A stretch of 64,000 nucleotides of DNA from Candidatus Babeliales bacterium (GCA_963722255.1 CAVRJO010000001.1:736001-800000), one strand, 5' to 3'. Counted from the first letter of the stretch, positions 6,808 through 64,000 are shown. The notes: generated from the letters alone by a model not told the origin. Numbers and translations: made by a program.

Positions 6808-7632
6808 ATGATAAGAAAAGCCATTTTTTTTGTACTAGCTACATCGCCCTTAATGCATAAAAATCTTTATTGCATGGAAGAACAAAAAAAATCAAACGAT
6901 CAATTAAAGTTGACTCATTATTTTGCTAATGCAGATACAACAGCGCGAAACAACTATTCTTGCATCCAGTCTTTTATAGAAACTATACTTCGCGGATCAA
7001 CTTTTATCACAGTAGATTCGAAAAAAAATGTCATAATTTTTAAAAATATATATGATAAAAATTCTCATTATCAATGCACTCTTAATGAGATAATGACCAT
7101 ACTTAATTGCACTGAATGTCAAGAATGGCCAGATATAGTAGTTGGTGGCACACCAACAGCTGAATCAATAAAAGCACTTCAAAAATTCGTCAGACTCCCT
7201 CAATTCAAGCAACAAATAATTTTTCAATATCGGCGTTGGAAATATTTCCTTCATGATCCTTTAAATGGGATATTTGAAAAAGAAGATTTTATTAAATATG
7301 TAAATGATAAGCAAAACAAAGATTCATTACCATGGCTTGATGGATTTGATGTGAAGCAGATGCATAATGAAGAGTACCTGGATTACTATTGGGTTAAACT
7401 CAAAAATAGAAATGAAAATCGAAAAAAGTTATTTGAAATGATAGATATTCTAATGCGAAAATATACAAATAAGGAATCTATAGAAATAGATGAAGCCATT
7501 CTTGAATTACACAACAGACCTCTCTGTATCAAGTTTGTACCACTTATTCAACATTATACTGCATTCAAGAAACAATTTTGTCCCAAAGAAATAATCCACA
7601 TCCACGAAAATCCTCGGTGTATCATTTCTTGA
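6808..7632 (+). CDS. Secreted hypothetical protein
   Basis: GAGG RBS; signal peptide ending NLYC|MEE. Confidence 0.75.
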   Translation: MIRKAIFFVLATSPLMHKNLYCMEEQKKSNDQLKLTHYFANADTTARNNYSCIQSFIETILRGSTFITVDSKKNVIIFKNIYDKNSHYQCTLNEIMTILNCTECQEWPDIVVGGTPTAESIKALQKFVRLPQFKQQIIFQYRRWKYFLHDPLNGIFEKEDFIKYVNDKQNKDSLPWLDGFDVKQMHNEEYLDYYWVKLKNRNENRKKLFEMIDILMRKYTNKESIEIDEAILELHNRPLCIKFVPLIQHYTAFKKQFCPKEIIHIHENPRCIIS

Positions 7633-7777
7633 GTAAACGATACCAGTATCAATGAAGGCCTATTTTGATTCTTTTAGTTTTTTCTTATGTATAATTCAAT
7701 CTATTTGTAACTGTTTTCAGTTTGACATTTATATAAAGCTATACGATTATTATACAATAGTATAAATAACCCAAAAC

Positions 7778-10156
7778 ATGCATACTACTCACTCACGGTA
7801 TTTAATGAATAACCATAAAAAACTGCTCGTATTGTTATGCTTTTTGCGTATGATAAGCTTCGCATCCTGCATGAACGATAATGCAATTGCTGAGTTTACA
7901 TCTATTAAAACCGAAGAAGGAAATCAAATACAATGCAACAATACTATTGTTGCTCAATCAAAAACGCTTCAATGGTTAATAAGCCATCAAGAAGAATCTA
8001 CTGAAGAAAAAGAGCCTATTCCTATTCCCATTTCAGAAAGTTCATTCAACTTCATAACACAACTAATTGAGCATGTTGCTCACATTGAACAAGAAAATAA
8101 AGCAACACAACTTGCACCATTATTTTTTGAACAAAATGTAACAGTAACTAAAACATTTTTAAATGCGATACGTTATTTGCACATCCCCATTATTGCAGAA
8201 GCATTAGAAATAGCAGGCTATAGATTTTCCGATGAAGCCACGGATGAGCAACTTTTTGCTCAAGTACTTGAATGCTCCTTAGAAGAAAAGGTAAAGGGTA
8301 CAAAAAGAAAACGACAAAGTCCTGAAGAAGATGCTCCTGGCTTTGAACTTATTTCCTTAGATGAAGAATCTATTTTTTTCCCCCTACGTTTAATAAAAAA
8401 AGCAAAAACATTAAAAGATCTTCATGAAGATAATCATATAAATGAAAGTTCAAACACCTCAGTCCCTTGCAATTTTAAAGCTAAAACATTGGTTCTACTC
8501 AAAAAATTTTTAAAAACGTCTTTACGAGATCGCTGCCAACAAGAAAGAGAAGAGCTTTTCAAAGATCTAAGCATGTACGAACTCATTGACCTTCTCAAAG
8601 CAACCCATTATTTTTTGTGTTCTGAAGAAGAAATAAAGAGTGTCAAACAACAAGTCCTAGAATCTTTACTAGAAAAATTAAAACAAGGGCATTTAGATTT
8701 GCCAAAACTGGACATTAATGACCAAATTAAAAGTGAATTAGCTGGACAAATACTAGGAAATATCGCTCCTTCTGTTCAAAATATAACTCCTTTTCCAAAA
8801 CCTCCCACAGGTTATCATATAATACAACCTGAAGCACAAATCGCATTACTTACCAATAAATTCGTTATTTTTAAATATACTCTAACAAATGTGCTTGCAT
8901 TGGTTGATTTGATAACTGGTCAGCATCTATGGCTTGAAATCCCTAATTATACAAATTTTAAAGAAACCTCTTTCCCCTTTTCTTATGTAAATATTAAAGA
9001 AACGCTTTTTTCCTTATCACCTTCTAAAAAAATAGTAACCAGCCTAACTGAACCCCACAAGGAAAATTGTGTTCTTATAATAAGAGACACAAAATCTGGC
9101 AAAATCATACACCAGCAGGTTGTTAAAGAAGGATATGTCAGACTAATACATTATTCATCAGATGAAAAATCACTTATTCTATATTGTTCACCAAAAATAA
9201 CCAAAATCAATTTGCAAGATTTTACTATAGAAAAAGAGACAAATGCACCGCTTACAACTAGATCATCACATGATATACGATTTTCACCGGATAATAACAC
9301 AGTAGCTATAATGAATGATGATATACACCAAAAATGGACCTATTTTGTGCGCAACTTACGAGATAAAAAAGGAGTTTCGGGGGAAAAAAAAGAAACGAAT
9401 AGTTTAATTACTCCTTCAAAAGATCTTACCATTGGATATTTTATAACTACCGATAGGACCAATTTAAGCGTTAATCAAATAGATTTTAAAACAAAAAAAA
9501 CAACCGAAATCTTAAAGTTAGCATCAAACTTAGATCGTTCTTACACTTTTCTTAAGCTAGCAGTTTCTGATGACAAAAAACATCTTGCCATTGTTGGAGA
9601 AAATAAATACTTTCCCGACACCACGAGCCCCTTGCACACTTACTATATAATTGATCTCTACAATCTTGTTACTCAATCACTTGAAAAACAGCTTCGCCTA
9701 AACAAAGCTCAGATAAAAGACCTAGGATATTTTGATATTCAAAAAGTATATTTTAAAGGTGATAGTTTATTATACTTAGAAGCACGTCGGTCGCTAAGAA
9801 AATATTATGGACCAAACGAACAACCAACTTCAGAAATACCTATATTTATTGTGGTTGACACCATTACGGAAAAATTCAAAAATTATCGAGTAACAGAAAC
9901 AGATCGCAATTCTCTCTTGTATGGTAAAGTTAATAATGAAACACAATGCATCCACACAGCATTAGCTATTCCATTAATTCCTCAATATTTGCCTAAGCTC
10001 TCATTACAACAGCTTTTACTTATACGCGCTTTGCAAAGAGGCATTGATAGACCTCTTACAGATCAAGAACATGAACTCCTTGAGAAACTACCTAAAAAAT
10101 TACAATCTTTTTCAAGTCTTCTCTGCTCAAGTTTCTCCATTTTATATACTCCTTAG
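7778..10156 (+). CDS. Secreted protein with two Skp1/BTB-like domains and a C-terminal beta-propeller-like region
   Basis: Signal peptide; IKTEEG...AQSKTLQWLI and LISLDEE...KAKTLKDL...LIDLLKATHYF; repeats FSLSPSKK, YSSDEK, FSPDNN, VSDDKK. Confidence 0.6.
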   Translation: MHTTHSRYLMNNHKKLLVLLCFLRMISFASCMNDNAIAEFTSIKTEEGNQIQCNNTIVAQSKTLQWLISHQEESTEEKEPIPIPISESSFNFITQLIEHVAHIEQENKATQLAPLFFEQNVTVTKTFLNAIRYLHIPIIAEALEIAGYRFSDEATDEQLFAQVLECSLEEKVKGTKRKRQSPEEDAPGFELISLDEESIFFPLRLIKKAKTLKDLHEDNHINESSNTSVPCNFKAKTLVLLKKFLKTSLRDRCQQEREELFKDLSMYELIDLLKATHYFLCSEEEIKSVKQQVLESLLEKLKQGHLDLPKLDINDQIKSELAGQILGNIAPSVQNITPFPKPPTGYHIIQPEAQIALLTNKFVIFKYTLTNVLALVDLITGQHLWLEIPNYTNFKETSFPFSYVNIKETLFSLSPSKKIVTSLTEPHKENCVLIIRDTKSGKIIHQQVVKEGYVRLIHYSSDEKSLILYCSPKITKINLQDFTIEKETNAPLTTRSSHDIRFSPDNNTVAIMNDDIHQKWTYFVRNLRDKKGVSGEKKETNSLITPSKDLTIGYFITTDRTNLSVNQIDFKTKKTTEILKLASNLDRSYTFLKLAVSDDKKHLAIVGENKYFPDTTSPLHTYYIIDLYNLVTQSLEKQLRLNKAQIKDLGYFDIQKVYFKGDSLLYLEARRSLRKYYGPNEQPTSEIPIFIVVDTITEKFKNYRVTETDRNSLLYGKVNNETQCIHTALAIPLIPQYLPKLSLQQLLLIRALQRGIDRPLTDQEHELLEKLPKKLQSFSSLLCSSFSILYTP

Positions 10157-10508: not shown

Positions 10509-12944
10509 ATGAGTAAAAAACTCCTAAAAATTCTTGTCTTATTACTGTTTTTAATAAACAACCCTAGTTTTGCAATGAAAAGAGCGAATAGGCCAATTTT
10601 TTCATTAAAAAGTTCTTTATTAGGCTCTAGCATAACTTTTTCTCACTTTTTACCAACATTAAATACCTCAAAAATGATTTATTCACAAAGCACAAGAGCT
10701 CACTTTGCTGAAAGATTTTATTCAAAACTAACAGCTGCTACGCCAGTATTTCAAAAATATCGACAATCTTATGACCAAAATGAATTTATAGGGCCTTTGG
10801 TTGCAGGCATTGCTATGGGTACCATCGCAAGCTCTGCAGTAAATAATTACAAGCATGTTTATGCCGATGAGGATATTAGCAAAGAACAACAAAATATCGA
10901 AAAAGAAATTATTGATGCCAGCAGCTTATTTGAATCATTAGAATGCTTGAAAAATAAGATAAACGAAAATCCATCACTTATTAACAAATACCAAGAAGCT
11001 GCCTTGAAACAATTTGATGTAATTACCTCAAATCCTCATTGGGCACCCTTATTAAAAATCTTATTTGAAGATGAAGCCTTAGCACAAAATCTCTGTAAAC
11101 GAATGAGTAGCAATGATTCTGCAGGAAAACAACTATTATTTTTAATCACAGAAAAATATTCTAGTACATTTACCAATACTGCTGCGCAGTATATGACACT
11201 AAATATTCAAGATCTGAATTTTAGTTCGTTTCATTCTATAAGCCTTATTGAAGAATTACTTGCTTCAAATTTTGAAAATCGAATCAAAATAACTTCAAGC
11301 ATATTTTCATACTGTAATAACATAGAAGATATTTTTAATAATAATGGTTTTTGGTTCTTGCTTGCAACTACAAAACATTCAGAATTACCGGAGCATTACG
11401 CAACATTAGTCGCAGAACAATTTAGTTCTTTAAAGCACCAACAATCTGAAGAATTTTATTTAAACCTTGATTCCTTTTTATCAAGTCAAAAGCCTTTGCC
11501 CTCAAAACTTAGCATTAAATTAGCGATGCAAAATTTACCTCTGGCATGCAATTTACTTATGTTTTCTAGGGTACTTTACAATGCTATTAATCAAAGCATA
11601 ACCACTATCGATAATCCTGAGACTTCTAAAAAACAAAAAATATCTGAAGCTTTGGTAGCGTATAGCTCAAGTATTGAAAATTCTAAATATGGCCCCTTTC
11701 TTTTGAATAGCATACTGAAAAAGAATGATGCTTTAAGTAAAAAATGGCACAAAGAGATTGAGCAAAGAATTAATACTGCTTCACCTTCAGCAATTATTTT
11801 ATTAACTGAACATCGTCCTTGTAATCCCAAAATAAAAAAATCACTTCAATCTTCAGAAAACAGTGGATCATTGGAAGATGAAATTAAGCATAGTATAAAA
11901 TCACATGCCTACCAAACTACATGTCCTCAGGATTGTACTCCTTTAAAAGCAAAATATAATAATCCTACCCATATTCATGTAACGCAGCTATCTAAAAAAT
12001 TAGTTCAACACTATCGTAAATTACTCAAGAGCGAAAACAGTTTATCTTGCATCGTTTATGATCAACAAAATTTCTTTGAACTTTGTAAGTCCTCTAATCA
12101 GCATTTAGAAAATATGATTAGTCAAGTTATTAAAAAAGAAAAAGAATTAAACAATAATGATTATTATACTTTTATTCATGGTCAAAAAAGTGAATATCTC
12201 CTTCATGAACAATTGCATACTTTTTTACAGCAATTAGCTCATAATGAAAAATCTTCAGGAGAACATATAGCATTACATGTTAAACCAGGGATTAAAAATT
12301 CAAATGACTTAAAAGAACAAAAAAAATTAAGAAAGCACTTATTACAACATGGAATAGATACTAGAGAAGATGAACGTAAATTATTATTTGTTAATTGGGC
12401 TTATTTTAGCAATATAACAAGATTAGGAGCATCTTCTGCTTATTACATAAAGCAAAATTGTAATATAGGCAATGTACGGATAACAACTGAGGATGTCTTT
12501 AAAATAAATCATATTGAATGTCTTTATCCAAAATATAAAGATACGTTCGAAGAGCTCCAAAAAGAATTTAAAAGTTTAACCAATTTTGGAACATGTATTT
12601 TAGTTGCAATTCCAAAAAAAACAGTTAATAAACATATTTATTCTTCTCAGGGCTATGGTTTTAAACAAGCTGTCGCTATTAAAAACATAGGCGAAACTGA
12701 TGACATGAGCACAATCATGGAAACCTTACTTAATGAACCTGAAAAAATCGATGATATTGACCAAATGGAATTTTGTATCCCTATGACCTATGACAAAAAG
12801 GGCGCACTTAACCCAGAAAGTGGTATTAAGATCTTTGCTTTCACTGCAGCTGATCAAGAAGAATTAGATGCCTATTATGCTCGCCAAAAAGCTTTATTTG
12901 AAGAAATAAAGAAGGATATTGAAAAGCTTCAAGCTATTTCTTAA
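10509..12944 (+). CDS. Large secreted hypothetical protein
   Basis: Signal peptide SFA|MKR, then a basic Ser-rich stretch and a hydrophobic segment; TTGACA...TATACT promoter upstream. Confidence 0.8.
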   Translation: MSKKLLKILVLLLFLINNPSFAMKRANRPIFSLKSSLLGSSITFSHFLPTLNTSKMIYSQSTRAHFAERFYSKLTAATPVFQKYRQSYDQNEFIGPLVAGIAMGTIASSAVNNYKHVYADEDISKEQQNIEKEIIDASSLFESLECLKNKINENPSLINKYQEAALKQFDVITSNPHWAPLLKILFEDEALAQNLCKRMSSNDSAGKQLLFLITEKYSSTFTNTAAQYMTLNIQDLNFSSFHSISLIEELLASNFENRIKITSSIFSYCNNIEDIFNNNGFWFLLATTKHSELPEHYATLVAEQFSSLKHQQSEEFYLNLDSFLSSQKPLPSKLSIKLAMQNLPLACNLLMFSRVLYNAINQSITTIDNPETSKKQKISEALVAYSSSIENSKYGPFLLNSILKKNDALSKKWHKEIEQRINTASPSAIILLTEHRPCNPKIKKSLQSSENSGSLEDEIKHSIKSHAYQTTCPQDCTPLKAKYNNPTHIHVTQLSKKLVQHYRKLLKSENSLSCIVYDQQNFFELCKSSNQHLENMISQVIKKEKELNNNDYYTFIHGQKSEYLLHEQLHTFLQQLAHNEKSSGEHIALHVKPGIKNSNDLKEQKKLRKHLLQHGIDTREDERKLLFVNWAYFSNITRLGASSAYYIKQNCNIGNVRITTEDVFKINHIECLYPKYKDTFEELQKEFKSLTNFGTCILVAIPKKTVNKHIYSSQGYGFKQAVAIKNIGETDDMSTIMETLLNEPEKIDDIDQMEFCIPMTYDKKGALNPESGIKIFAFTAADQEELDAYYARQKALFEEIKKDIEKLQAIS

Positions 12945-17084: not shown

Positions 17085-17780
17085 TTAAACTTTTATCTCT
17101 TGTAACTCTTTGTGCATCCATTGAGAACCAACTTCAATTTCTTGATAGCCTTTTTTTTCATAAAACTGTTCTTTGCCTTTTTCGGCATAAAAGAATATTT
17201 TTGAGCAGTTAGATAGACGCATTTCTTTCTCTAAATCTTCAAGCAATAAGCCAGCATACCCACGATTTCTAAACTTTTTTTTAGTTTTTAGTAAATCAAT
17301 TCTGCATTCACAGCCTTGACCATGAGCACCTTCAAATACTCTAAATTTTAATAATGCAACTTCTTTTAAATCATTAAGATCAGCGTCAGCAACTTCATTC
17401 TTTTTATCATCACTCTGTAACTGTAGCTTTTTTATTCCTGAAAAGTTATATTCTATGGGTCCAAGAACAATAGCCTCTATCCGTTTTTTTGAAACACGAG
17501 ACATAATTCTATGTACATCAGTAGCAAGAGTTATTTTAGCGTCAGATTTTAATTCTTTATATCTAAAACTATCATTAATAGTCGTGGGTTTTTCTTTATC
17601 CAAAAACTCTTCATACGAAGCATATGATTTTTTTTCTATATATTGATTAGCTAAATAACTTAAGCCAAACAATGAAAATGCATGTCGTAATCCTAAGGAC
17701 CTAAAGGATTGCATAGCATATAATGATGAACTACCAAAAAAAATGAGAATCATTACTACTTTTTGAACACAATGTTTCAT
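17085..17780 (-). CDS. Secreted GNAT acetyltransferase
   Basis: FRNRGYAGLLL and FYEKKGY motifs; signal peptide LYA|MQ. Confidence 0.85.
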   Translation of the reverse strand: MKHCVQKVVMILIFFGSSSLYAMQSFRSLGLRHAFSLFGLSYLANQYIEKKSYASYEEFLDKEKPTTINDSFRYKELKSDAKITLATDVHRIMSRVSKKRIEAIVLGPIEYNFSGIKKLQLQSDDKKNEVADADLNDLKEVALLKFRVFEGAHGQGCECRIDLLKTKKKFRNRGYAGLLLEDLEKEMRLSNCSKIFFYAEKGKEQFYEKKGYQEIEVGSQWMHKELQEIKV

Positions 17781-17808: not shown

Positions 17809-18507
17809 TTATTTAAGCCTCTTAAGTTTTTTTTCCATAAAACCGGTATCTGGATCAACTTCTTTAAATCCTCGATCTTTATAAAACTTTTCTTTTCCAA
17901 TTATTGCATTCAATGTTATAGCTTCACAACCACCACGGCGTGCATCATCTTCTACAGAACGCAGCAATAAAGATCCAAACCCTTTACCACGCTGCTTACG
18001 TTTTGTTTTTATAAAGGCAACATCGCATTCACATGCTTGCCCAGGCAATTCCTGCACCTGATATTTTACAAAAGATAATGAAGAATTAGAATCCATTTGT
18101 GCTTCATAATTTTGTTGGTCATCGTCTTGTGATAATGATTTTACTCCTTCATAGAGCACTGGAATATGTTCCACAGTAACAATATCTTCTCCTGTTAAAG
18201 CCGGTTCAAAATATTTTTTTGTTACCTTTACATCAGTTTTAAGAACTAATGTTGTGTTATTATCATTGCCTTGAAATTCATAACGCTGAAACGCTGAGCC
18301 ATCATTATTTGGTTTCATCTCTTTATGCAAAAACTCATTATATGAACCATATCTCTTATTATCTTCCAAATACTGTTGTGCCATATAGCCAATCCCCAAA
18401 AACGAGGCAACATACGGTAATTTCGATTTTTTCATGGTTTGCATAGTATATAAAGAAAAGTTACCAAAAAATAAGAATAGCACTGCTATTTTTGAACTAT
18501 TATTCAT
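17809..18507 (-). CDS. Secreted GNAT acetyltransferase (tandem paralog)
   Basis: QRGKGFGSLLL and FYKDRGF motifs; signal peptide LYT|MQ. Confidence 0.85.
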   Translation of the reverse strand: MNNSSKIAVLFLFFGNFSLYTMQTMKKSKLPYVASFLGIGYMAQQYLEDNKRYGSYNEFLHKEMKPNNDGSAFQRYEFQGNDNNTTLVLKTDVKVTKKYFEPALTGEDIVTVEHIPVLYEGVKSLSQDDDQQNYEAQMDSNSSLSFVKYQVQELPGQACECDVAFIKTKRKQRGKGFGSLLLRSVEDDARRGGCEAITLNAIIGKEKFYKDRGFKEVDPDTGFMEKKLKRLK

Positions 18508-19306: not shown

Positions 19307-19768
19307 ATGAACAATTTTTTTGATTTTTTAAAAATTACACTTTTTGTACTCATTCTTTTATCAATTGCATTGAAGAAAACTATTGCAATGGAAGATGATG
19401 CACTGCCAACAGAAGGCGATGCACTCTATCAAGAAGCTATTAACAAGTTAATACAAGAACTTAAAGGAGAGACGCTTCCTTGCACAGATAATTCTGAATA
19501 TAGTATCGATACAAATCTATGCACAAATCAAAACCAGCATGAAGCACAAAAATGTGCACCGACAAAATTCAGTAAACTACAATGCGATATTTGCTATAAA
19601 AATTACAAAACCGAACAGTTATTAGAGCTCCATCGCAACGTAAGACACCTTAAGTTATTTTATGTGTGTGCAAACTGTAAAGAATCATTTAACCATATAG
19701 CATTATTGGAAGCTCATCAGGCTCAAAACATATGTGACCAAAAAACTATTCTTGCTGAAATGAATTAA
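19307..19768 (+). CDS. Secreted C2H2 zinc-finger protein
   Basis: CDIC-x12-HRNVRH and CANC-x12-H-x5-C; signal peptide TIA|ME. Confidence 0.8.
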   Translation: MNNFFDFLKITLFVLILLSIALKKTIAMEDDALPTEGDALYQEAINKLIQELKGETLPCTDNSEYSIDTNLCTNQNQHEAQKCAPTKFSKLQCDICYKNYKTEQLLELHRNVRHLKLFYVCANCKESFNHIALLEAHQAQNICDQKTILAEMN

Positions 19769-28471: not shown

Positions 28472-29038
28472 ATGAGCCTTGTGAAGAAATATATCATTGC
28501 CCTATTATTTATAACTATTTATATACCTGCATGTTTTTCAATGGAATCATTGAAAGCATCATTAAAAATTGCTGCCTTGCCTGTCCTTGCTTCAATGACA
28601 CCACACATAGTCGGAACATTTTTGCAAAATTCAGCTACACAATCAACAGCTTCTCTATCTTCAATTTTATTTCACTCACTCAAAATGAACATAATCCCAG
28701 CTTTTGTGTCGGGGCTTCTCGTTGCAGGAGCATCTCGCATTGGAACTTGGCCACAACTCAACTTTACTGATATATCTAACCCTTTAAAAAAAATGTTAGG
28801 CACTACAATATTCATTTCTGCATTAATTGGAATTGCTCAATATAATCAAGAATACAATGAAAAAGAGTTTCAAAAAGCACTGAGCATAGAACATAAACTA
28901 TATCATTTATCTGAAAAGCAAAAATGCGCACTCTTAGGAACTTTAGCATCACTTTGTTTACAATCACAAATTATTGTCCCCTTAGGTAGCGCGGCACTAT
29001 CGCTTTATATACTTGGCACACGATATTCTATGTGCTAA
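28472..29038 (+). CDS. Secreted/membrane hypothetical protein
   Basis: Signal peptide CFS|ME and several hydrophobic segments. Confidence 0.7.
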   Translation: MSLVKKYIIALLFITIYIPACFSMESLKASLKIAALPVLASMTPHIVGTFLQNSATQSTASLSSILFHSLKMNIIPAFVSGLLVAGASRIGTWPQLNFTDISNPLKKMLGTTIFISALIGIAQYNQEYNEKEFQKALSIEHKLYHLSEKQKCALLGTLASLCLQSQIIVPLGSAALSLYILGTRYSMC

Positions 29039-29166
29039 ATCTTTTGTCCACATAGCAAGAATGCTTACGATTTTCAGAATTCTTATAAATTTATATGTTC
29101 AATGATTGTAAAAAAACCAACTTCCTTGTAAAATTTAAATTAAATTCAAGATTTTCAAGGAGTTTT

Positions 29167-37425: not shown

Positions 37426-38819
37426 TTAATAATTTACTAACCTGTACTGAATTTTCCTGGTCGTTGCTTTTCTTACCATTGTAATAATTTTTTCAACTAT
37501 CTGTGTTTGCTGTTCTTCAGGCAAAGCGTTCACAAGCTCAGAATCGGAGAGCTTTAACACATTGTAATCAAAATGTCGCCTATATTTTGAAAGTGCAATG
37601 TACACAAGAATTAGTTCAAGTGATGGATGCAATTCTAATTCAATAGAATCATCACCTTTACATCGACTCATAATACGATCAGTAGCTAAATCATAACATA
37701 CTGTTTTGTACTTAGAAAAGCCTTCTTTAATATTTCTTCTTATCATAAGCATACCGTCTTCAAAAGATGCTATAGAAACTTGATCAACAACTGATTTAGC
37801 TGGATTAGGATTTTGTATTTCCTTTACATAATCCCATAATTCATTTCCAGTATCATGTAAAATATGTATAGTGTTGTTCCTTACTATTAATGCGCAAGAT
37901 CGGCCATCTTTTGATGGGACAAGTGCGAAATTATCCTCACGAGAAATCTGTTTTATTAGATCAAAAGTCCAGATATCTTTATTTTTTCTACACGCATAGA
38001 TTTGTCCCTGATACGTCGTTATAAAAAAACAGTTTTCATCAACACAACAAACATCTTTTATAAGAGATTCAAATTTTTTTGTTACTATTTCATCATCTCC
38101 TGGCAAACAATTTACAACTGTTATAGTCTTGTTATAACAAGATACACATGTTTTATCACCTATGAAATGAACTCTATGAAGGAGATTATCATACATTTCT
38201 TCACATAGATTTTTTTCTTCTTTAATTGGAACCCATTCATCATTCCTGTTTTCCAAAATTACAATAGTTTTATTATGTAAACCAACTGCAAAAAAATGAC
38301 CATTTGGTGAAAAATTAGATTTATCTACTTGAACTATTGTAGTTTCACTTTTTTCTTCAGACCTTTTTCGTATTGTAAGCATATTGCTGGGTATGTACCA
38401 AACGTGAAAAGTTCCTCGCCCTCAGATTCAAATAGATCAACTGAATAGGGATGGCTTTTATCTGATTTTCTTTTTCTACAATCAACCTTCCAACGATGCA
38501 TAAAACAATTATAAAAAAATTGTTGTGTCACAAATGCCCTTAGCTCTTCGGGGAAAATAGAAAGGCAACTTTGGACTTCTTTTAATTTAGCATCGACAGT
38601 GGTTGCTTGTGCTTTTTCACAAATAGGGACAATCCGTGTTTCAACAAAAACGTTACTCGCTATTTCCTTTAAAGAAGGAGCTCCAAAACTATTAGTCACT
38701 CTATTAAATTTTAATTGTAATGCTTCTTCATCTTTTGCAATCGGCTCTTGTTGCTTTTCCATTGCGGTACTTGAACAGAAAAATAAAAAAATCGAAAAAA
38801 AATAAGTAGAGTTTTTCAT
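37426..38819 (-). pseudogene. Secreted beta-propeller-like protein split into two overlapping ORFs (38334..38819 and 37426..38382)
   Basis: Signal peptide STA|ME; FSPNGHFFAVG and PSKDGRSCA WD-like motifs; 49-bp out-of-frame overlap. Confidence 0.55.
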
Positions 38820-41752: not shown

Positions 41753-42190
41753 ATGAACAGTGTTTATAAAAAATTTATAGTTTTCTTTTCTCTTACTGCA
41801 GTATCTACATCATTCGGTATGACTAGTGACAAAACCTTTGATATTGAATCAGGAAGCGATACAACAATTTCATACCAATCTTTACCGCAAGCATTAGAAT
41901 CCACCAATCCTATAAACAGAAAACGATCGCCTTGGACAAATTTTTATACAGTTGCTGGAGGCCTCATGGGAACCGGAATTACTGCAACAGTCACATGGCA
42001 TTTGGCAACAAGCCATACGCCAGATCAAATTGATGATGCAAGTCCCTGGGTATATGGGGCTGGTACCGTAGTTGCAACTTTTGGAGTCTGTTGTTATTTT
42101 GCAACCTATGGAGCGAATATTTTTCATACAACCTATAAAAAAATGGCTAAAAAATTACAATCTATTGGAAACTCTCAAGGAGACCTATGA
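41753..42190 (+). CDS. Small secreted protein with two hydrophobic helices
   Basis: Signal peptide SFG|MT; paired hydrophobic segments. Confidence 0.7.
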   Translation: MNSVYKKFIVFFSLTAVSTSFGMTSDKTFDIESGSDTTISYQSLPQALESTNPINRKRSPWTNFYTVAGGLMGTGITATVTWHLATSHTPDQIDDASPWVYGAGTVVATFGVCCYFATYGANIFHTTYKKMAKKLQSIGNSQGDL

Positions 42191-42615
42191 AAAAAAAATT
42201 ATTACTTTTTTTAGGAACCATTTCTTTTTTTCTTTCAAATTATACTATGAATAGAAATGAAAAATTCGAAGTTGCAATTACCGTAAACAGTGTTGGAGGA
42301 ACCGCACACTATTACACACCACTACCACCACTTAACAATGATGCACCATTATCATCCTGTGGAAAAATTATTGCAGGAATCTACACAACCGGATGCGGTG
42401 TTGCAACAACAGCTAGTATAGCTGCCGTAGACTATTTTGTTATAAATTTTGCAGCTACTGAAGGATTGGAACCATCAGGCGCTATAGCTCTTGGAATTTG
42501 CTCAGGACTTGCAACTGCGATCGGTGGATTAATAGTATGGTATGGCGGATATCGTTATGTGCGTTCTTGCTTACCGCGTGCAACAAATATCAATAACATC
42601 ATTGTTGAAGAATGA
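42187..42615 (+). CDS. Small secreted protein with two hydrophobic helices
   Basis: ATGA overlap; signal peptide NYT|MN; paired hydrophobic segments. Confidence 0.7.
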   Translation: MKKKLLLFLGTISFFLSNYTMNRNEKFEVAITVNSVGGTAHYYTPLPPLNNDAPLSSCGKIIAGIYTTGCGVATTASIAAVDYFVINFAATEGLEPSGAIALGICSGLATAIGGLIVWYGGYRYVRSCLPRATNINNIIVEE

Positions 42616-42646: not shown

Positions 42647-43000
42647 ATGAAACAGTTGTTGATTTTCTTGCTTTTGCTTACAAGCACCATTGCTTTGCCG
42701 ATGAATATCCTTGAAGATATTGAGTCGGGCATTCAACCATATCCGTGTCATCTTGCATTAACCATGAAAAAAGGCTTTTATGCTTTTAGCTCATGGTTTG
42801 GAACTGCCGCAGGAGCATTTGTAGTAGAAATTCTTGCACTCAATGCAATAAATAAAGCATTCCAAGAGGTTATTGATCCTTTACCGGAATCATGCTATGT
42901 CGTTGCAGCATGCACATCATCATTAGTAGGTTGTTTACTTGGCCCAAGAGTCTATAGAGTTTTACAAGCACCTTCCCAAGAAGAAGATTCAGACTTATAA
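42647..43000 (+). CDS. Small secreted protein with two hydrophobic helices
   Basis: Signal peptide MKQLLIFLLLLTSTIALP|MN; overlaps the 3' end of the convergent symporter. Confidence 0.6.
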   Translation: MKQLLIFLLLLTSTIALPMNILEDIESGIQPYPCHLALTMKKGFYAFSSWFGTAAGAFVVEILALNAINKAFQEVIDPLPESCYVVAACTSSLVGCLLGPRVYRVLQAPSQEEDSDL

Positions 43001-48832: not shown

Positions 48833-49453
48833 TTATCCAACTTTTTCCAAAATCCTCTGCCCCACATACTCAACAATGTCTTCTTCAAGTTCTTTTACAA
48901 TGTTTGGATTTAGATCACTTATAATAAACTCTTTGAATTGAGAATCCGTAGCATAAACTTTTTTATCAATGAAATTTTTAAATTCTCTATCCCTTAAATA
49001 AATTCCATTTGCTGAAGCAAGGGGATAAGTAGTATGCTTATCATCTTGCTTAAAATAACTCATTAAAAGGTCCACAAACTGTTTATAAACCTCAAAAGGC
49101 TTCTCCGCCTTCATAACGCCCCCATTTTTTATTCGTAAAGCATCAAATGCATCCATTTGATTCATGCCTCGAAAAATGGGACTCAAGCCTTGCTTTAATA
49201 AAAATTGAGTAAATTCATAATCACCCTTATATACAGCTGAAATAAGGGGATTATGGTAATGGTGCTGCTTCCCTTCAACTACTGGAATAGCCCTCATCAT
49301 ATTTGCCTTATACGACTCATAGTCAAGATTACCTTGATCATAGGCTGGACCACTTTCCCAATACAGATCTCCAGCCTCTTCTTTAGTAAACTCCATTGCA
49401 TAGTGAATATGTGGTATAAGTGCAAGCGCTGCTACTATACATAATCTTTTCAT
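48833..49453 (-). CDS. Secreted ankyrin-repeat protein
   Basis: HNPLISAVYKGDYEFTQFLLKQGLSP; signal peptide HYA|ME. Confidence 0.75.
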   Translation of the reverse strand: MKRLCIVAALALIPHIHYAMEFTKEEAGDLYWESGPAYDQGNLDYESYKANMMRAIPVVEGKQHHYHNPLISAVYKGDYEFTQFLLKQGLSPIFRGMNQMDAFDALRIKNGGVMKAEKPFEVYKQFVDLLMSYFKQDDKHTTYPLASANGIYLRDREFKNFIDKKVYATDSQFKEFIISDLNPNIVKELEEDIVEYVGQRILEKVG

Positions 49454-49557: not shown

Positions 49558-50154
49558 TCATGTACTATGTAATCTAAACCATTCTTGAATATTAATTTTT
49601 TCTTTATACCAAGGATTAATGCTTTTCGCAGGAAAAGGTGTATACACTTCACCAGCAGGTATATACTTCTTTAAAAGCAAAAAAATCTCAGAAAGCGAAG
49701 CCGTCTTTTGCACTGAACTGAAATCTTCACTAGTGCATATATTAGCTGCATCAAAGGCATTAACAAAATCAGTTCCCCGAAAAAGAGGATTAGCCCCGTG
49801 CTTTAAAAGAAATTCTATAAATTCAACATCCTGTGCTTGAACGGCTCTGATGAGTGGATTATGTTGTTGATTTTGCGTATATCTCAATTCTGGAACAATC
49901 TTTTGTAAAATTTTTTTGAAATCACTATAGGGTTGATCTTTGCAATCAAAAAAATGCTGCACGGGATTGTCATTATCATTAAGAGAAGTCTTTTTTATAC
50001 TATCTTCAAGATTGCCTTCATAAGCCTTAAGAAGGGCCAATTTGTTCTCATCCATAGAATCGCGTGCAGTCGAATCCCACTGTTCTTCTTGCATAGCGCA
50101 TACATTCAAGAAAATAGCTAATGCCATAAATAAATATCGTGCTTCATTCCTCAT
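49558..50154 (-). CDS. Secreted ankyrin-repeat protein (tandem paralog)
   Basis: HNPLIRAVQAQDVEFIEFLLKHGANP; signal peptide VCA|MQ. Confidence 0.75.
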   Translation of the reverse strand: MRNEARYLFMALAIFLNVCAMQEEQWDSTARDSMDENKLALLKAYEGNLEDSIKKTSLNDNDNPVQHFFDCKDQPYSDFKKILQKIVPELRYTQNQQHNPLIRAVQAQDVEFIEFLLKHGANPLFRGTDFVNAFDAANICTSEDFSSVQKTASLSEIFLLLKKYIPAGEVYTPFPAKSINPWYKEKINIQEWFRLHST

Positions 50155-52625: not shown

Positions 52626-53237
52626 TTAGCTTCCTTTTGCAGCAAAAGGTATCTTTGAAGCAGCTAACGTTACGAGTGGCATTAAGCGTGCATTAAAAAG
52701 AGATGCTACTTCATTGCGGAAGAAGTATGATGCTATACTGGCAGCACTAAGTCCTAATCCGATAGCACCGAAAATTCTTTTGTAATCGTAGATAGTATAA
52801 TGATATCCTCTAATATCTTTATAAGAAAGATCACTATCATTAAGATAAATGTTTTTCCATACAGTATTACCTTCTGTTCTCCAAATAAGCTTAGTGAAAA
52901 AGCCGTTTCTTCTCACGGACAAATCATCATAATAGTATGTACCTTGTCTCTTCGCCTTGTTCAATAGCATTATTTTTTCTGAAATTCTATCACAACAATC
53001 CTTTCTTGTTGAATTAGATGGATTTTCAGCCAAAACTTTATTTACTTGCTCTTGAGAAGATATCCATGGTTTAACAGACATAGCTATACAATCTTGTGTA
53101 TATTGTTTGAATAATTCTTTAGAATCATGATAGCTATATCCTTCTTTAGTTAGCTTTTTCATTGCAAATGATTGCTGCACTGTAGTTCCCACGAGAATTA
53201 TAGTTGCAGCAATATATAATTTTAATACTATTTTCAT
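52626..53237 (-). CDS. Secreted protein with C-terminal membrane segment (paralog of 54404..54949)
   Basis: Near-identical signal peptide and C-terminus YDYKRIFGAIGLGLSAASIASYFFRNEVASLFNARLMPL. Confidence 0.75.
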   Translation of the reverse strand: MKIVLKLYIAATIILVGTTVQQSFAMKKLTKEGYSYHDSKELFKQYTQDCIAMSVKPWISSQEQVNKVLAENPSNSTRKDCCDRISEKIMLLNKAKRQGTYYYDDLSVRRNGFFTKLIWRTEGNTVWKNIYLNDSDLSYKDIRGYHYTIYDYKRIFGAIGLGLSAASIASYFFRNEVASLFNARLMPLVTLAASKIPFAAKGS

Positions 53238-54403: not shown

Positions 54404-54949
54404 TTAGCTTCTTTGAGCTAAAAATGGAACTTTCGAAATAGCTGAAGTTAGCAACGGCATTAAGCGTGCATTAAAAAGCGATGCTACTTCATTGCGGAAG
54501 AAATATGACGCTATACCGGCGGCACTAAGTCCTAATCCGATGGCACCATAGATTCGTTTGTAATCATAGGTATCAATATACATTGTATTAAAACAATGCG
54601 AAACGTTGTGCTCTTCTATACCTACTTGCTGCGTAAACCAACCAGTTCGAACACATGAAATACGCTTTGTTTTGTATACTTTAAATTCTTGTGCCCTTGT
54701 TCTCTTTCCTGAAACATAATCTAAATACTTTTTAGCTCCAGTTAAAAGCTCAAGCGCTGTAGCATCATTTTCGAACTTAGCTTTTTTTGCTTCAAATGCT
54801 TTCAAGATCTCTTGATCTGTTGCTCCTTGTCTTGCACCAAGTTGTTTACATGCAAGTGGATATGTCCACATATTCATTGCAAATGATTGTTGTACCATTC
54901 CAACAAGAATGATAGTTGCAGCAATATATAATTTTGTACTTATTTTCAT
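54404..54949 (-). CDS. Secreted J-like-domain protein (no HPD) with C-terminal membrane segment
   Basis: ACKQLGARQGATDQEILKAF. Confidence 0.7.
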   Translation of the reverse strand: MKISTKLYIAATIILVGMVQQSFAMNMWTYPLACKQLGARQGATDQEILKAFEAKKAKFENDATALELLTGAKKYLDYVSGKRTRAQEFKVYKTKRISCVRTGWFTQQVGIEEHNVSHCFNTMYIDTYDYKRIYGAIGLGLSAAGIASYFFRNEVASLFNARLMPLLTSAISKVPFLAQRS

Positions 54950-54987: not shown

Positions 54988-55680
54988 CTAAGCTGCAACA
55001 GCAGCTTTTCTATAGTTATACCATACTACCGCTAATCCTAGCCCAATCGTGGCAACAATACCGATTCCTAAAGCCCATTTAAAACGTTGATTTCGAGGTG
55101 CCTCATGCGTCTCTCCATCTTCACGTTCTTGAATCTGTGAGAGTGCTTCCACAAGGTCTAGATCTTCCATTGAAGTAACAACTTTCTTGGCTGTCTCAAA
55201 TTCTTTCTCTCTATTATCTTGCTTTTTAATATGATTGGCAGCTTTAATACGATTTTTACGGCGCGCATTTCTTCGCTCAAGTCGCCTCGCACATCTTTCT
55301 TCAAAAAGCTTTTTTGCTGTGTATAAACTTTCACACTCTTCAGACATCAACAAAAGCTTTGAAAATTCCATTTTATTATCGTATGTTTTCAATGTATAAC
55401 ACAAATTCAATTGATCTTTATCGCCATTAGGCAAATATATCCAATATTTACCATCGATCCTAAAACCATTTTCTTTGATAAATTCATCATCAAAACTGAA
55501 TTCATTTTCATTGTCAAAGCACTGACCTTTTGAACTAGGGACTAAACCATTGGCAATACCATCTTCATCAATTTCTACTTCAGGAGTAGGTTGTTCCATG
55601 CTTATTACTTGGCCCATGCCAAACAAAAACATAAGGCCTAAAAAGATAATTGTTTTATTCATTTTCATATATAACCCCAT
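54988..55680 (-). CDS. Secreted protein with C-terminal membrane anchor
   Basis: Signal peptide VIS|ME; FKWALGIGIVATIGLGLAVVWYNYRK. Confidence 0.75.
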   Translation of the reverse strand: MGLYMKMNKTIIFLGLMFLFGMGQVISMEQPTPEVEIDEDGIANGLVPSSKGQCFDNENEFSFDDEFIKENGFRIDGKYWIYLPNGDKDQLNLCYTLKTYDNKMEFSKLLLMSEECESLYTAKKLFEERCARRLERRNARRKNRIKAANHIKKQDNREKEFETAKKVVTSMEDLDLVEALSQIQEREDGETHEAPRNQRFKWALGIGIVATIGLGLAVVWYNYRKAAVAA

Positions 55681-56391: not shown

Positions 56392-57132
56392 TTATGCTTT
56401 TTTTGTATACAAATTTTTTACAAAGTTAGATATTTTAACCAATCCGGGAACCACAAAAGAATCTTTCAATGCAATAACTTTAGCCGGGTGGTAAATCCAC
56501 ATACATGTTCCAAAACCTATACCTACAAAACCAAGACCAACTGACCATTTAAAAATAGTATTTTTTAACTGAACTCTCTTCTTTTCATTATAAATTTTTC
56601 TTACATTTTCCTCATCAGCTTTTGGAACTTTAACAAAACCATCTGTAGTTTTTATCGTAACTAATTCTTCTTCACCGTTTTGGTCAGTTCCAAAAAAATT
56701 GTCAAATAATTTCTGGGTAGATGCGCCAGCAAAAAATTGATGCATAGGGCTATCTTGAGGAAACATTTCTTGAATTTGTTTATTTAAGTTTTGATCATTC
56801 TTAAAGATTTCACAAAAAAATTGATTTGCAGCTTCTAGGCTTGGCTGATATGCCTTTTCTTTGCCAGTTATAATCGCATAGGCGCGTACGACTCTTTTAA
56901 AATTTTCCTCAGCATCGTTATCAGGATTTTTATCTGGGTGATATAGTAAAGCTAATTTTTTGAATGCAGCCTTAATTTCATCAGCATTAGCACCTTCATC
57001 AACACCAAGCAACGCATATGCTTCACTTCTGGCCATTTCTTCTAAAGGCTTTGTAAATTCCATACCTCTTGAATGACCAATACCACCTAAAAGCATAAGG
57101 CCTACAAGGGCAACTATTCTATTAATTTTCAT
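56392..57132 (-). CDS. Secreted J-domain protein with C-terminal membrane segment
   Basis: YALLGVDEGANADEIKAAFKKLALLYHPDKN; signal peptide SRG|ME. Confidence 0.88.
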   Translation of the reverse strand: MKINRIVALVGLMLLGGIGHSRGMEFTKPLEEMARSEAYALLGVDEGANADEIKAAFKKLALLYHPDKNPDNDAEENFKRVVRAYAIITGKEKAYQPSLEAANQFFCEIFKNDQNLNKQIQEMFPQDSPMHQFFAGASTQKLFDNFFGTDQNGEEELVTIKTTDGFVKVPKADEENVRKIYNEKKRVQLKNTIFKWSVGLGFVGIGFGTCMWIYHPAKVIALKDSFVVPGLVKISNFVKNLYTKKA

Positions 57133-57842: not shown

Positions 57843-57885
57843 TTTTTTGTATAATCTGCAATTGAATTGCAGATTATACAAAAAA
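57843..57885. promoter_or_regulatory. Perfect 21-bp-arm palindrome upstream of the ATPase gene
   Basis: TTTTTTGTATAATCTGCAATT-G-AATTGCAGATTATACAAAAAA. Confidence 0.7.
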
Positions 57886-57894
57886 GGTAAAAAA

Positions 57895-59707: not shown

Positions 59708-60280
59708 TTATTTGGAACTAGCACGTAAATTAAGTTTGTAAAAGCCCCACAAGCTCGCTACGCATATTCCTATCAAGAGACCGGCTATGGCTTTTTGAGC
59801 ATGATAATAGATGGGCAAATATTCTGTTCTATAACTTTCCCGTGCCATTTGGTATGAATCTACATTTTCATAGATACTAACTTTATATGCTTTTGCGTAA
59901 GGAATTCCAATAAATAAGAACGTATCGAGCTCCTCTTTTATCGAACCCGATTGCCCATTAAATTTTATCTCAAATTGTTTTAAAAAATTTGATACATACG
60001 ATTGAGGATGCTTATTCAATAAAATTTCAACAGCAGATTTTAATGATTCAAATTTTTGCCTAGCCTCATGAGGCGTTAATTTATTATATTGCGCACGATC
60101 TGGATGAAATCTTAAAGCTAACAGCTTAAATTGATTCTTTATATTTTCGTCAGTCAAGCTATCTTGACTAAGCTCTAATATTTCACAAGCCTCTTTCCAG
60201 GTTAATTTTGAATTCATTGCCTGCATAGAACTAATGCTGAAAACAAGTATTAATATGGCAAATAGATTTGTTTTTTTCAT
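59708..60280 (-). CDS. Secreted J-domain protein with C-terminal membrane segment
   Basis: EACEILEL...FKLLALRFHPDR; signal peptide MQA|MN. Confidence 0.85.
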   Translation of the reverse strand: MKKTNLFAILILVFSISSMQAMNSKLTWKEACEILELSQDSLTDENIKNQFKLLALRFHPDRAQYNKLTPHEARQKFESLKSAVEILLNKHPQSYVSNFLKQFEIKFNGQSGSIKEELDTFLFIGIPYAKAYKVSIYENVDSYQMARESYRTEYLPIYYHAQKAIAGLLIGICVASLWGFYKLNLRASSK

Positions 60281-60432
60281 ATATTTTTCCCTTTTTATAT
60301 ATTTCTTTTTCATAACTATAGATTATCAAATTAACCAAAAAAGTCAATATTCAATTTGTAATTAACTATAATCAATTGAGAAAATCAGAACTATTGCAGA
60401 AAAATAATTTGACTGTTCTTTTTTTTTGAAAA

Positions 60433-61029
60433 TTATCTGCTCCAGAGTGAACTGAAACAGGTAGGGCAATGATAATGCCATAAGGCACCAAAGCCTATAA
60501 TGAAAGGAATTGAAAAGAGAAACTTTGCTTTAAGGCAATATACAGATTTTGTTTTAATATAAACATTCCAGCCTTCTTCTGTTTTGGCGAGCGCTTCAAG
60601 AAGCGATTGGTCTTCGTCCTCAGGACTGTCTTCAACTACACCAATTACTTTTTTACAGGCAAAAAGATTTGCTTTTAAATTGTGTATCCCATAAACAAAT
60701 TCAAACGTATTAACATTCTTTGATAACCAATAACCCAAAAAACTATATCGTTTAGTCTCTTGTAAAAAAACTCTTTTCTCAGAATTATATTCAATTATAG
60801 AAATATTATTTCTTTTTCGCTCTGCTGCAAGAGATCGTAAAGCCTCCTTGTTTTCAGAAGATTGCGGAAAATAACCACTCAGCTGATGTGTTTTTTGAGC
60901 GTTCTCAAATAATTCACTCAAAAACATCCATTGTCGCTCTTGACGCTTTTTCTCTTCCATAGCCTCTAACAATGAATAAGACAAAATAAAAAATAAGGCA
61001 CAAATAAAGGATAGAATGTATTTTTTCAT
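60433..61029 (-). CDS. Secreted protein with C-terminal membrane segment
   Basis: Signal peptide LEA|ME; FLFSIPFIIGFGALWHY. Confidence 0.72.
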   Translation of the reverse strand: MKKYILSFICALFFILSYSLLEAMEEKKRQERQWMFLSELFENAQKTHQLSGYFPQSSENKEALRSLAAERKRNNISIIEYNSEKRVFLQETKRYSFLGYWLSKNVNTFEFVYGIHNLKANLFACKKVIGVVEDSPEDEDQSLLEALAKTEEGWNVYIKTKSVYCLKAKFLFSIPFIIGFGALWHYHCPTCFSSLWSR

Positions 61030-61822: not shown

Positions 61823-61851
61823 AAAATTTCAAAGAAATATACTTTATTTTT

Positions 61852-61880: not shown

Positions 61881-61897
61881 AAATACCTGTTATTTTC

Positions 61898-63081: not shown

Positions 63082-63342
63082 GTTATTTTCCTCTAGATCT
63101 GCGTATGGCTGCATACTATAATATCTTAAATAACTCCATTTATCTTGATTTGCTGTGAAGCAATTTTGCAGGCCAGGTCAATCGATCGTCCTGCTTCTCT
63201 TATACTTTTGTTAGGAGCCCATTCCTTTTAAGTATTTAAATTTCAATTAGAAATAAAGATTGACTTTTAATATAATTCGTATATTCTTAAAATTAAAGTA
63301 AAAAAGATGTGTAAGAAATCATAAGGGCTTATGGAGGATTTT

Positions 63343-64000
63343 ATGGAAAGAAAAATGAATTTATTAAAACTATTTTTTACCGTTCAATTATTTACTCTTC
63401 CTTTCTATCTTCTATGCATGAAAGAGTCCGATATTAACGAAATTCTTTTTCCTGAAGGTAAAAACTTTAATTTTTATATCACTCATGATGATCAAAATCT
63501 TCAGTCAGAAAAAGTAGAGCTTTCACAAAATGAAGTAAAACTTCTGATAAAAGCTACATCAATAAGAAATCTAGTCTTAGATACTTATGATTGTACAAAT
63601 TTTAGTGAACAATCTGATTATTATTTCGTAATACAATCCATTGTCGATCTGAATCAATTGAAAAAATTTTTAGAGCAAGTTTCATCAAGCTTATGTAGTG
63701 ATGAAATTATGCTTGATCAGTATGATCAAATATCATTAAACAATATACTAAATAGTTTAAATTTAGAGCCTCATGATGTCGCCAGTTGGGCACAGATTTA
63801 TCAAATTTTAGGTTTTGAAAATGAATATTTAAAATCAATAATTAATCATCATGCTCTTCAAATAGATTTGTATAACCTCGAGAATAATTTACCACAGTTG
63901 CAAGACTTTATAGGGGTAACAAAATTACAAAATCAAAGAGAATTTGATCTATTTCAATTTTTGATTAAGAATCATCCACAAACTTGCATTCGACAACAAA
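63343..64000 (+). CDS. Secreted hypothetical protein, runs off the window
   Basis: GGAGG RBS; open frame MERKMNLLKLFFTVQLFTLPFYLLC|MKESDINE... to the window end. Confidence 0.75.
   Translation, partial: MERKMNLLKLFFTVQLFTLPFYLLCMKESDINEILFPEGKNFNFYITHDDQNLQSEKVELSQNEVKLLIKATSIRNLVLDTYDCTNFSEQSDYYFVIQSIVDLNQLKKFLEQVSSSLCSDEIMLDQYDQISLNNILNSLNLEPHDVASWAQIYQILGFENEYLKSIINHHALQIDLYNLENNLPQLQDFIGVTKLQNQREFDLFQFLIKNHPQTCIRQQ

Follow-up and report, generated by a model that had tools for sequence, protein, structure and literature searches.

A preferred methionine directly after the signal-peptide-like leaders of effector-like proteins in a Candidatus Babeliales genome

In a 64,000-nucleotide stretch of the genome of a Candidatus Babeliales bacterium (phylum Dependentiae), we found that effector-like and orphan proteins carry an N-terminal leader followed directly by a Met, most often with Glu, Asn or Gln after it, and that this junction recurs throughout the genome. 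The genome, labelled G000, amounts to 1.62 Mb in two contigs (C1 and C2) and is 93% complete; the whole stretch, hereafter the window, is C1:736001-800000. It is a chromosome segment of 34% G+C, in which S1, NDK, RuvA/X, MnmE, RNase G, G6PD and PGI housekeeping genes lie between the genes in question, and the named relatives of its RNase G gene are from metagenome-assembled genomes called 'Candidatus Babeliales', 'Candidatus Dependentiae', 'candidate division TM6' and 'Vermiphilus pyriformis'. Judging from sequence patterns, the leaders are very probably ordinary Sec signal peptides with selection on the Met that follows. The whole reading, in which ordinary Sec leaders expose a selected Met at position +1 of host-directed proteins and so give them a host-compatible N-terminus, we hold to be evenly balanced between right and wrong, and a host-like N-terminus as the purpose of the Met is put forward only tentatively.

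Results

Met at +1 in the Window and throughout the Genome

An earlier reading, made from the window alone (the sequence-only reading), had listed 23 junctions between a tripeptide and Met-X, and all 23 were found in the ORFs (open reading frames) named. In these genes an upstream ATG is followed by 1-3 basic residues, a hydrophobic core, a small residue at -1 and then the Met, the leaders being 18-28 residues long; the exception at -1 is the Pro of gene 42647 (1/23). The residue after the Met is E in 10, N in 5, Q in 3, K in 3, H in 1 and T in 1, so that the figure of 18 of 23 with E, N or Q was correct. The probability of obtaining 23 junction Mets by chance among about 33 leader-bearing window ORFs, at a background of 1.7%, is ~1e-33, or ~3e-11 when the Met may fall at any of 10 positions. 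The signature had been described as window-wide, which is right for the window and too narrow overall, as the pattern holds genome-wide and across a clade.

Gene calling over the whole of G000 gave 1658 non-overlapping ORFs of at least 70 aa, and 718 of these (43%, membrane anchors included) were signal-peptide-like by a leader heuristic that requires net positive charge and then an uncharged 10-residue window with a mean hydropathy of at least 1.9. These denominators are approximate because the gene calls and the heuristic are crude; the 43% share agrees with the 44% of coding sequences with signal peptides given for another Dependentiae genome in the available text of PMC6561590. The frequency of Met by position in the signal-peptide-like ORFs reached a peak of 6-7.5% at residues 21-24, compared to 1.7% in bulk. 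The pattern [AGSCT]M[EDNQ] was present at residues 15-40 in 211/717 leader ORFs but at residues 45-71 in only 14/706 (Fisher p 1e-52), and in ORFs without a leader it was found in 41/940. Where M[EDNQ] stood at residues 15-40 of a leader ORF, the residue right before the Met was small in 211 of 242 cases. Furthermore, a predictor that used only positions -3 and -1, and hence was blind to +1, gave Met as the commonest +1 residue (119/623), which upholds the enrichment expected by the sequence-only reading.

A loose rule (leader, small residue, Met, then a polar stretch) was used to define what we call class M. It comprises 275 ORFs, among them a few false members (one type IV pilin and some membrane proteins), and Met at +1 is found in about 38% of leader-bearing ORFs, compared to the 1.7% background. 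The class-M leaders are mostly 18-23 residues long. Position -3 is occupied by L (80), I (42), S (36), A (23) or V (23), position -2 mainly by F, Y or L, and position -1 by A (95), S (65), G (52), C (32) or T (31). At +2, the preference for E, N, Q or D seen in the window was found to hold in 188/275 (E 119, N 30, Q 27, D 12, with K at 14), and the stretch beyond +2 is rich in E, K, S, N and Q. Because the codons chosen at -1 and +2 follow genome-wide synonymous usage, the constraint acts on the protein; this ordinary codon usage also rules out a DNA-level junction motif, which had been considered.

Class-M Leaders Resemble Sec Signal Peptides

The class-M leaders look like cleavable Sec signal peptides of the signal peptidase I (SPase I) type, with predicted cleavage. 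Compared to other leaders with a good predicted site, they have a length of 22.7 vs 21.5 residues, an n-region charge of +1.9 vs +2.0 and a similar Leu content, although positive charge and a hydrophobic window are also selection criteria of the heuristic; their mean hydropathy from the core to the cut is 1.8. A Tat-like twin-arginine motif was found in just 2/275 class-M leaders, and a lipobox-like word in 7/275, with Met and not the lipobox Cys at +1. The type IV prepilin motif (a short basic leader with G/F-or-M-T-L-I-E at the cut) was present in 1/275, which was a real pilin mis-flagged by the class-M rule.

AT-rich DNA translates to peptides rich in Phe, Ile and Leu, and the leaders might thus be an artefact, namely untranslated AT-rich open sequence upstream of a Met that is the sole true start. 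We give this almost no credence: the leaders are of defined length, with a -3/-1 pattern and an n-region that is basic (mean net charge +1.9), the upstream ATG is preceded by a Shine-Dalgarno (SD) sequence, public gene callers chose the long form, and sister genomes of similar GC (29-42%) put through the same pipeline show no signal.

The Junction Met Is Not a Shine-Dalgarno-Led Start

SD-like tetramers were present 4-18 nt upstream of 60% of the upstream ATGs (a strong pentamer in 33%) and of 2% of the junction ATGs, the latter value being lower than the 8% found for random internal ATGs. In the window, the counts were 14/23 for upstream ATGs and 0/23 for junction ATGs. The residue following the junction Met is E in 43%, N in 11% and Q in 10%, whereas the second residue at SD-supported starts is K in 20%, N in 15%, A in 11%, I in 9% and E in 7%, and at the first starts of the class-M genes themselves it is K in 42% and N in 13%. 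Public gene calls for the five window genes compared had the long form in 5/5 and the short form in 0/5. Therefore, the junction Met is not an SD-led internal start, and the possibility named in the sequence-only reading, that it is merely an internal start codon, is not what was found.

A related proposal is that the junction ATG initiates translation in addition to the upstream ATG, giving a leaderless cytoplasmic isoform beside the exported form. An in-frame ATG is indeed conserved at a fixed place, and leaderless or re-initiation mechanisms need no SD sequence. We nevertheless consider this very improbable, given the SD frequencies above, a +2 codon that is mostly GAA and not the AAA or AAT of real starts, and nothing to suggest that a cytoplasmic form would be needed for hundreds of putatively host-directed proteins.

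Independence and Retention of the Met

The 275 class-M ORFs fell into 202 single-linkage clusters, 171 of them singletons. Only 13 of 37,675 pairs of leaders were at least 60% identical, and all 13 were paralogues with homologous mature parts, which rules out the shuffling of a leader as a mobile cassette onto unrelated genes.

Three tandem pairs of class-M paralogues (C1:503535/505879, C2:666227/667956 and C2:194640/195221) have signal peptides that are 94-100% identical and mature parts that are 27-50% identical. This points to 5' gene conversion or to diversifying selection on the mature parts.

Orthologues were taken as reciprocal best hits against 960 kb (~63%) of the same-genus genome G066; BLAST high-scoring segment pairs across the junction were not used, as too few span it and repeat proteins misalign. 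Such hits were obtained for 18/180 strict class-M ORFs, 157/538 other leader ORFs and 299/940 leaderless ORFs, and by this measure of sequence turnover the class-M genes are fast-evolving and short-lived. A junction of a small residue and Met, scored by a rule blind to the residues that follow, was nevertheless present in 12/18 orthologues of class-M ORFs, compared to 8/98 controls (p 2e-7), the controls being orthologues of leader-bearing ORFs without a junction Met. In the 7 pairs of which both members pass the strict rule, the 8+8 residues flanking the Met were 17% identical (19/112), as in the pair ...FQLFA/MEKELGND and ...FPLFT/MQNKPDKD (the slash marks the predicted cut).

The Met could also be a historical scar, left at +1 when a leader was added upstream of an existing start and common only through the youth of the genes, with no function. 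The fast turnover would fit this account (18/180 reciprocal best hits vs 29-32% in the other classes), as would a J-domain protein that aligns to DnaJ from 2 residues past the junction Met, and ORF g0827, one of the six whose orthologues lack the junction, for which the orthologue is leaderless and begins at the aligned Met. We think it improbable as a general explanation: the Met is kept in two-thirds of the orthologues while its flanks have diverged, the +2 spectrum is unlike that of real starts, a small residue stands exactly before the Met in 211/242, and sister families with similar effector repertoires do without the Met.

Spread of the Signature across Babeliales

The 60 other genomes of a phylum sample all belong to the same order. 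The identical pipeline was applied to samples of 20-100 kb, and [small]M[EDNQ] at residues 15-40 was counted against residues 45-71. In the family of G000, it was found that G066 had 109 vs 16 (over 960 kb), G074 had 11 vs 1 and G084 had 10 vs 2. The signature was also present in other families (labelled f2 to f13), with 12 vs 2 in G001 and 4 vs 0 in G002 (f2) and 9 vs 0 in G005 (f3); G048 and G052 (f9) had 2 vs 0 each, and 12 vs 1 and 6 vs 1, respectively, when any [small]M was counted. Little or no signal was obtained from G007 (f4; 2 vs 2), G008 (f5; 0 vs 1), G040 and G009 (f6; 3 vs 1 and 1 vs 0), G028 (f10; 0 vs 1), G041 (f11; 3 vs 1) and G045 (f13; 1 vs 0). The samples of f7, f8 and f12 were too small to call, and this division of the families is post hoc and descriptive. 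As their G+C is similar, the low-signal genomes act as negative controls of the pipeline. When 25 named Babeliales loci were pooled, the counts were 30 vs 4 in 162 leader ORFs, and three Planctomycetota loci gave 0 vs 0 in 8. Babeliales families thus differ, some having a strong signature and others a weak one or none.

Carriers, Non-Carriers and the Export Machinery

Leader-bearing ORFs were classified by Pfam in the window and in C2:1-400 kb, where all 170 contained in single extracted loci were used (62 class M and 108 others). The window carriers with a Pfam family are two GNAT proteins, one C2H2 zinc finger protein and two J-domain proteins, the remainder being orphans, whereas the window non-carriers are a fasciclin, OmpA, an anchored superoxide dismutase (SOD), an anchored NDK and one J-domain protein. 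The 62 class-M ORFs of C2:1-400 kb include 10 ankyrin proteins, 3 WD40/propeller proteins and 46 without a Pfam family, in addition to 1 TPR protein (in the Bat operon, with I-T-T following), 1 M48 protein that is probably a membrane anchor and 1 weak synaptobrevin match. The 108 others include BamA, SurA, Skp, PBP2, Ctp (S41), two M23, FKBP, SecD/F, BatD and VWA proteins, as well as three GH1, S8 and S9 hydrolases, two ankyrin proteins and one J-domain protein; L4, Ku and an epimerase among them are false positives of the heuristic. Genome-wide, the rule places 22/33 ankyrin genes in class M, and a further 3 have ...A/ME by eye.

The Pfam split and the ankyrin count bear out the contrast drawn in the sequence-only reading between effector-like or orphan carriers and classical envelope proteins. 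Its list of envelope-type proteins without the pattern holds for fasciclin, OmpA and SOD, and is ambiguous for the serine hydrolase (31716-33317), the junction of which, ...VTGVS/MQIVEGKK, satisfies the loose class-M rule.

Two of the window non-carriers have N-terminal hydrophobic segments of their own. NDK is encoded by a tandem pair (14903-15313 and 15409-15921, both on the + strand), and the second copy has an N-terminal hydrophobic leader or anchor, which suggests that it is exported or membrane-tethered. The Fe/Mn SOD (27399-28250, - strand) has a long N-terminal extension with a hydrophobic anchor and is probably extracytoplasmic.

Two SPase I (Peptidase_S26) genes are present in G000, at C2:137986-138699 and C2:701964-702665. 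The number of SPase I copies is 1-3 per genome and does not track the signature: G001, in which it is strong, has one, and G007, in which there is none, has two (G045 has three Peptidase_S26 matches, with one gene in two pieces). Secretins, two in G000, likewise occur as 2-3 tandem copies whether or not a genome has the signature. A dedicated second signal peptidase or an extra secretin was ruled out at the level of copy number, since the copies do not track the signature. The sequence-only reading had also suggested an uncharacterised export route, and this was not supported: with ordinary leaders, the scarcity of Tat-like motifs and the uncorrelated SPase I and secretin copies, nothing points to one. 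An exported methionine aminopeptidase was also considered; the M24 matches in G000 are one intact and one stop-riddled sequence.

These data also bear on whether the Met acts on the bacterial side, as a sorting signal: a Met-(Glu) end would be recognised in the periplasm, whether by the type II/secretin pathway, by a chaperone or during vesicle loading, so that host-bound proteins are separated from envelope proteins. The sharp split between effector-like carriers and envelope non-carriers is in line with such a signal, as are the two secretin genes and the detection of type II as the only secretion system in Babela, according to the accessible part of PMC4378268. We regard it as unlikely, however, because no machine was found to co-vary with the signature (SPase I and secretin copies being alike with and without it), because exported hydrolases of the kinds that are classical type II cargo (GH1 x3, S8, S9) lack the Met, because one or two residues carry little information, and because ankyrin proteins of related families are exported without it.

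Discussion

The favoured sequence of events may be set out as follows. Translation would begin at the upstream ATG and give a leader of ~19-25 residues with a basic n-region, a hydrophobic core and a small residue at -1; the leader would be cut exactly before the Met (the predicted site), leaving a mature N-terminus of Met-Glu, Met-Asn or Met-Gln. The rule would be kept by selection and restricted to fast-evolving, putatively host-directed proteins (ankyrin, WD40, J-domain, GNAT and zinc-finger proteins and many orphans), which presumably leave the cell by a secretin-dependent pathway or in vesicles and would then act in the cytosol of the host. In that compartment, an N-terminal Met with an acidic or amide residue after it would resemble a retained eukaryotic initiator Met and might stabilise the protein. 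With E, D, N or Q in second place, Met is not removed by methionine aminopeptidase, belongs to the NatB substrate class and is stabilising in N-degron terms, whereas a bulky hydrophobic residue in that place gives a degron.

Since the leaders have ordinary Sec/SPase I anatomy and the Met at +1 is selected, Met-Glu, Met-Asn or Met-Gln is the most likely N-terminus of the mature proteins. A role on the host side is favoured because the carriers would be expected in the host cytosol while envelope proteins and exported hydrolases lack the Met, because no bacterial machine co-varies with it, and because there is a toxin precedent in the available text of PMC2518864.

Several points weigh against this interpretation. 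As regards the leaders, the cleavage sites are predictions by a hand-made -3/-1 rule, and class M has L or I at -3 in 44% and Ala at -1 in just 35%, a choice looser than that of classical Gram-negative (E. coli) sites. As regards selection, the orthologue sample is small (18 pairs) and 6/18 lack the junction, two or three of these six stemming from class-M false positives. In addition, the J domain of the secreted J-domain protein noted above (G000 ORF g0687) starts two residues after the junction Met, and that of the housekeeping DnaJ (g0377) is placed alike after its own initiator Met; g0687 looks like a leader grafted before a DnaJ-type start, and a historical scar may thus be the origin of some junction Mets. 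As regards purpose, Ala, Ser, Thr and Gly are equally stabilising, so that N-degron logic does not single out Met, and Lys makes up 12-14% of the first mature residues compared to 7.7% in bulk, i.e., it is not avoided. Ankyrin proteins of sister families do without Met at +1: the ankyrin-type leaders of G040 end in ...NC/SQQ, ...RA/SEE and ...YA/AET, and the S, A or T at the predicted +1 in related families means that Met is not required for such proteins generally. Finally, delivery to the host would be an assumption taken from the literature.

A bolder version of the host-side role, which we rate as rather unlikely, is that in a clade of protist-infecting bacteria the signal-peptidase cut sites of the whole effector secretome have been tuned to counterfeit a eukaryotic initiator N-terminus of the NatB class (Met-Glu, Met-Asp, Met-Asn or Met-Gln). 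If this were true, the proteins would escape N-degron surveillance as well as methionine aminopeptidase, and their N-termini might be acetylated by the host. There would then be a first instance of eukaryotic N-terminal proteostasis moulding a bacterial secretion signal across a proteome, and host-cytosol effectors could be recognised in Dependentiae genomes by a sequence tag.

The closest parallel is the Q-rule of Bacteroidetes, in which, according to the accessible text of PMC5837995 and PMC10653852, Gln occupies +1 of most SPase I substrates and is cyclised to pyroglutamate by glutaminyl cyclase. Like the Met rule, the Q-rule is a lineage-specific, proteome-wide preference at +1 of ordinary Sec signal peptides that is found in only part of a larger clade. 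The residue is Gln over most substrates in the one, whereas it is Met on effector-like and orphan proteins, with envelope proteins spared, in the other. The +1-blind predictor gave Met at 119 and Gln at 32 of the 623 sites of G000, which is not the profile of a Q-rule genome, and no match to Glu_cyclase_2 (PF05096) was obtained in the 93%-complete G000, the animal-type cyclase lying outside this search. Classical Sec/SPase I leaders share with class M the n-region charge, the hydrophobic core, the length of ~22, the small -1 residue and the SPase I genes, but here Met is in excess at +1, the -1 position is shared among A, S, G, C and T, and L or I is common at -3. Lipobox and type IV prepilin leaders are specialised leaders that also have a fixed +1 residue (Cys, and Phe or Met, respectively); in prepilins, the hydrophobic segment comes after the cut, whereas in class M it comes before the Met.

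For anthrax lethal factor, potency in the cytosol depends on which residue signal peptidase leaves at the N-terminus, Met and Gly being stabilising, in the available part of PMC2518864. That case is similar in that the residue exposed by signal peptidase decides stability in a eukaryotic cytosol, Met being among the most stabilising; however, the toxin cases concern single proteins and mutagenesis, whereas here a whole secretome class appears tuned, as known from sequence alone. Listeriolysin O and diphtheria toxin are reportedly the subjects of further N-end-rule studies, cited among the references of the lethal factor paper.

In Babela, a signal peptide was reported on 79/126 ankyrin proteins, and type II was the sole secretion system detected, in the accessible text of PMC4378268; type III, IV and VI systems are not reported for Dependentiae in the available parts of the genome papers cited here. 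We found no description of a Met +1 rule in the Dependentiae, signal peptidase and N-degron literature, with subscription-only papers and bioRxiv supplements outside the search, and the word 'methionine' has 0 occurrences in the accessible text of PMC6561590, PMC4378268, PMC5837995 and PMC11495043. A lineage-specific Met-first rule therefore appears to be undescribed.

In Dependentiae, nearly half of the genes are for exported proteins, and the rule bears on how host-directed proteins can be told from envelope proteins. A one-residue rule that picks out ~275 proteins from 202 unrelated families, and leaves BamA, SurA, Skp and OmpA unmarked, is a cheap and testable classifier of candidate effectors. 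It would be the second case, after the Q-rule of Bacteroidetes, of a lineage that imposes a +1 residue on its Sec substrates, and it would link the evolution of bacterial signal peptides to eukaryotic N-terminal biology. In practice, the cleavage site may be misplaced in these genomes by predictors that were trained on standard bacteria, and gene finders face two plausible ATGs per class-M gene.

Genes and Other Features of the Window

The class-M genes of the window are given in Table 1, together with the mobile-element genes. Genes 7778..10156 (with an Arg in its core) and 19307..19768 escaped the leader heuristic. The sole match of protein 10509-12944 among 5.8 billion clustered proteins was itself. 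The same-genus orthologue of gene 48833..49453 is 33% identical and has the junction ...SLA/MK, and the leaders of 54404-54949 and 52626-53237 are nearly identical. Across 101 genomes of the order, protein 56392-57132 matched little beyond its J domain, mostly in housekeeping DnaJ; the one exception was a match in the same-genus G066, with 37% identity over residues 35-153, which extends somewhat past the J domain.

Table 1. Class-M genes and mobile-element genes of the window (window coordinates; a slash marks the predicted cut).
Feature	Coordinates	Strand	Met codon	Junction	Remarks
Class-M orphan, no Pfam family	6808..7632	+	6874-6876	LYC/ME	Leader 6808-6873; SD-like GAGG before 6808, none before 6874
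Class-M orphan, 792 aa	7778..10156	+	7871-7873	ASC/MN	Likely start 7805 (MNNHKK...)
Class-M orphan	10509..12944	+	10575-10577	SFA/MK	
Class-M, GNAT acetyltransferase domain	17085..17780	-	17712-17714	LYA/MQ	
Class-M, GNAT paralogue	17809..18507	-	18442-18444	LYT/MQ	
Class-M, C2H2 zinc finger	19307..19768	+	19388-19390	TIA/ME	
Class-M orphan, 901 aa	20061..22766	+	20130-20132	TLS/ME	
Class-M	28472..29038	+	28541-28543	CFS/ME	
Class-M	33500..33916	+	33584-33586	SLS/MH	
Class-M	35507..35911	-	35849-35851	IHC/ME	Public gene call is the long form
Class-M	38334..38819	-	38760-38762	STA/ME	Public gene call is the long form
Class-M	41753..42190	+	41819-41821	SFG/MT	
Class-M	42187..42615	+	42247-42249	NYT/MN	Public gene call is the long form
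Class-M, atypical Pro at -1	42647..43000	+	42701-42703	ALP/MN	
Class-M	48833..49453	-	49394-49396	HYA/ME	
Class-M	49558..50154	-	50092-50094	VCA/MQ	
Class-M	52626..53237	-	53160-53162	SFA/MK	
Class-M	54404..54949	-	54875-54877	SFA/MN	
Class-M	54988..55680	-	55597-55599	VIS/ME	
Class-M, J domain	56392..57132	-	57061-57063	SRG/ME	
Class-M, J domain	59708..60313	-	60215-60217	MQA/MN	Likely start 60280
Class-M	60433..61029	-	60958-60960	LEA/ME	Public gene call is the long form
Class-M, cut by window end	63343..64000	+	63418-63420	LLC/MK	
Mobile-element genes	22788-24068 (-), 25078-25557 (-), 53338-54375 (+), 62151-62979 (+)				Pfam scan

The mobile-element genes, which lie among the effector-like genes, comprise an rve integrase, an IS200-type Y1 transposase, a DDE transposase and a split DDE fragment. 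Two tmRNA genes were found 1.8 kb apart, at 59232-59599 and 61383-61822 (both on the - strand; Rfam scores of 155 and 148 bits, respectively), with two class-M genes between them. Their mean column identity is 82%, and the tag peptides given by ARAGORN differ, being 13 vs 30 residues long; two divergent tmRNAs are unusual for a 1.6-Mb genome. In addition, four paralogous ATPases with AAA_14 and DUF4143 domains are encoded within 30 kb, at 29095-30339 and 30459-31697 (+), 38918-40084 (-) and 57847-59073 (+).

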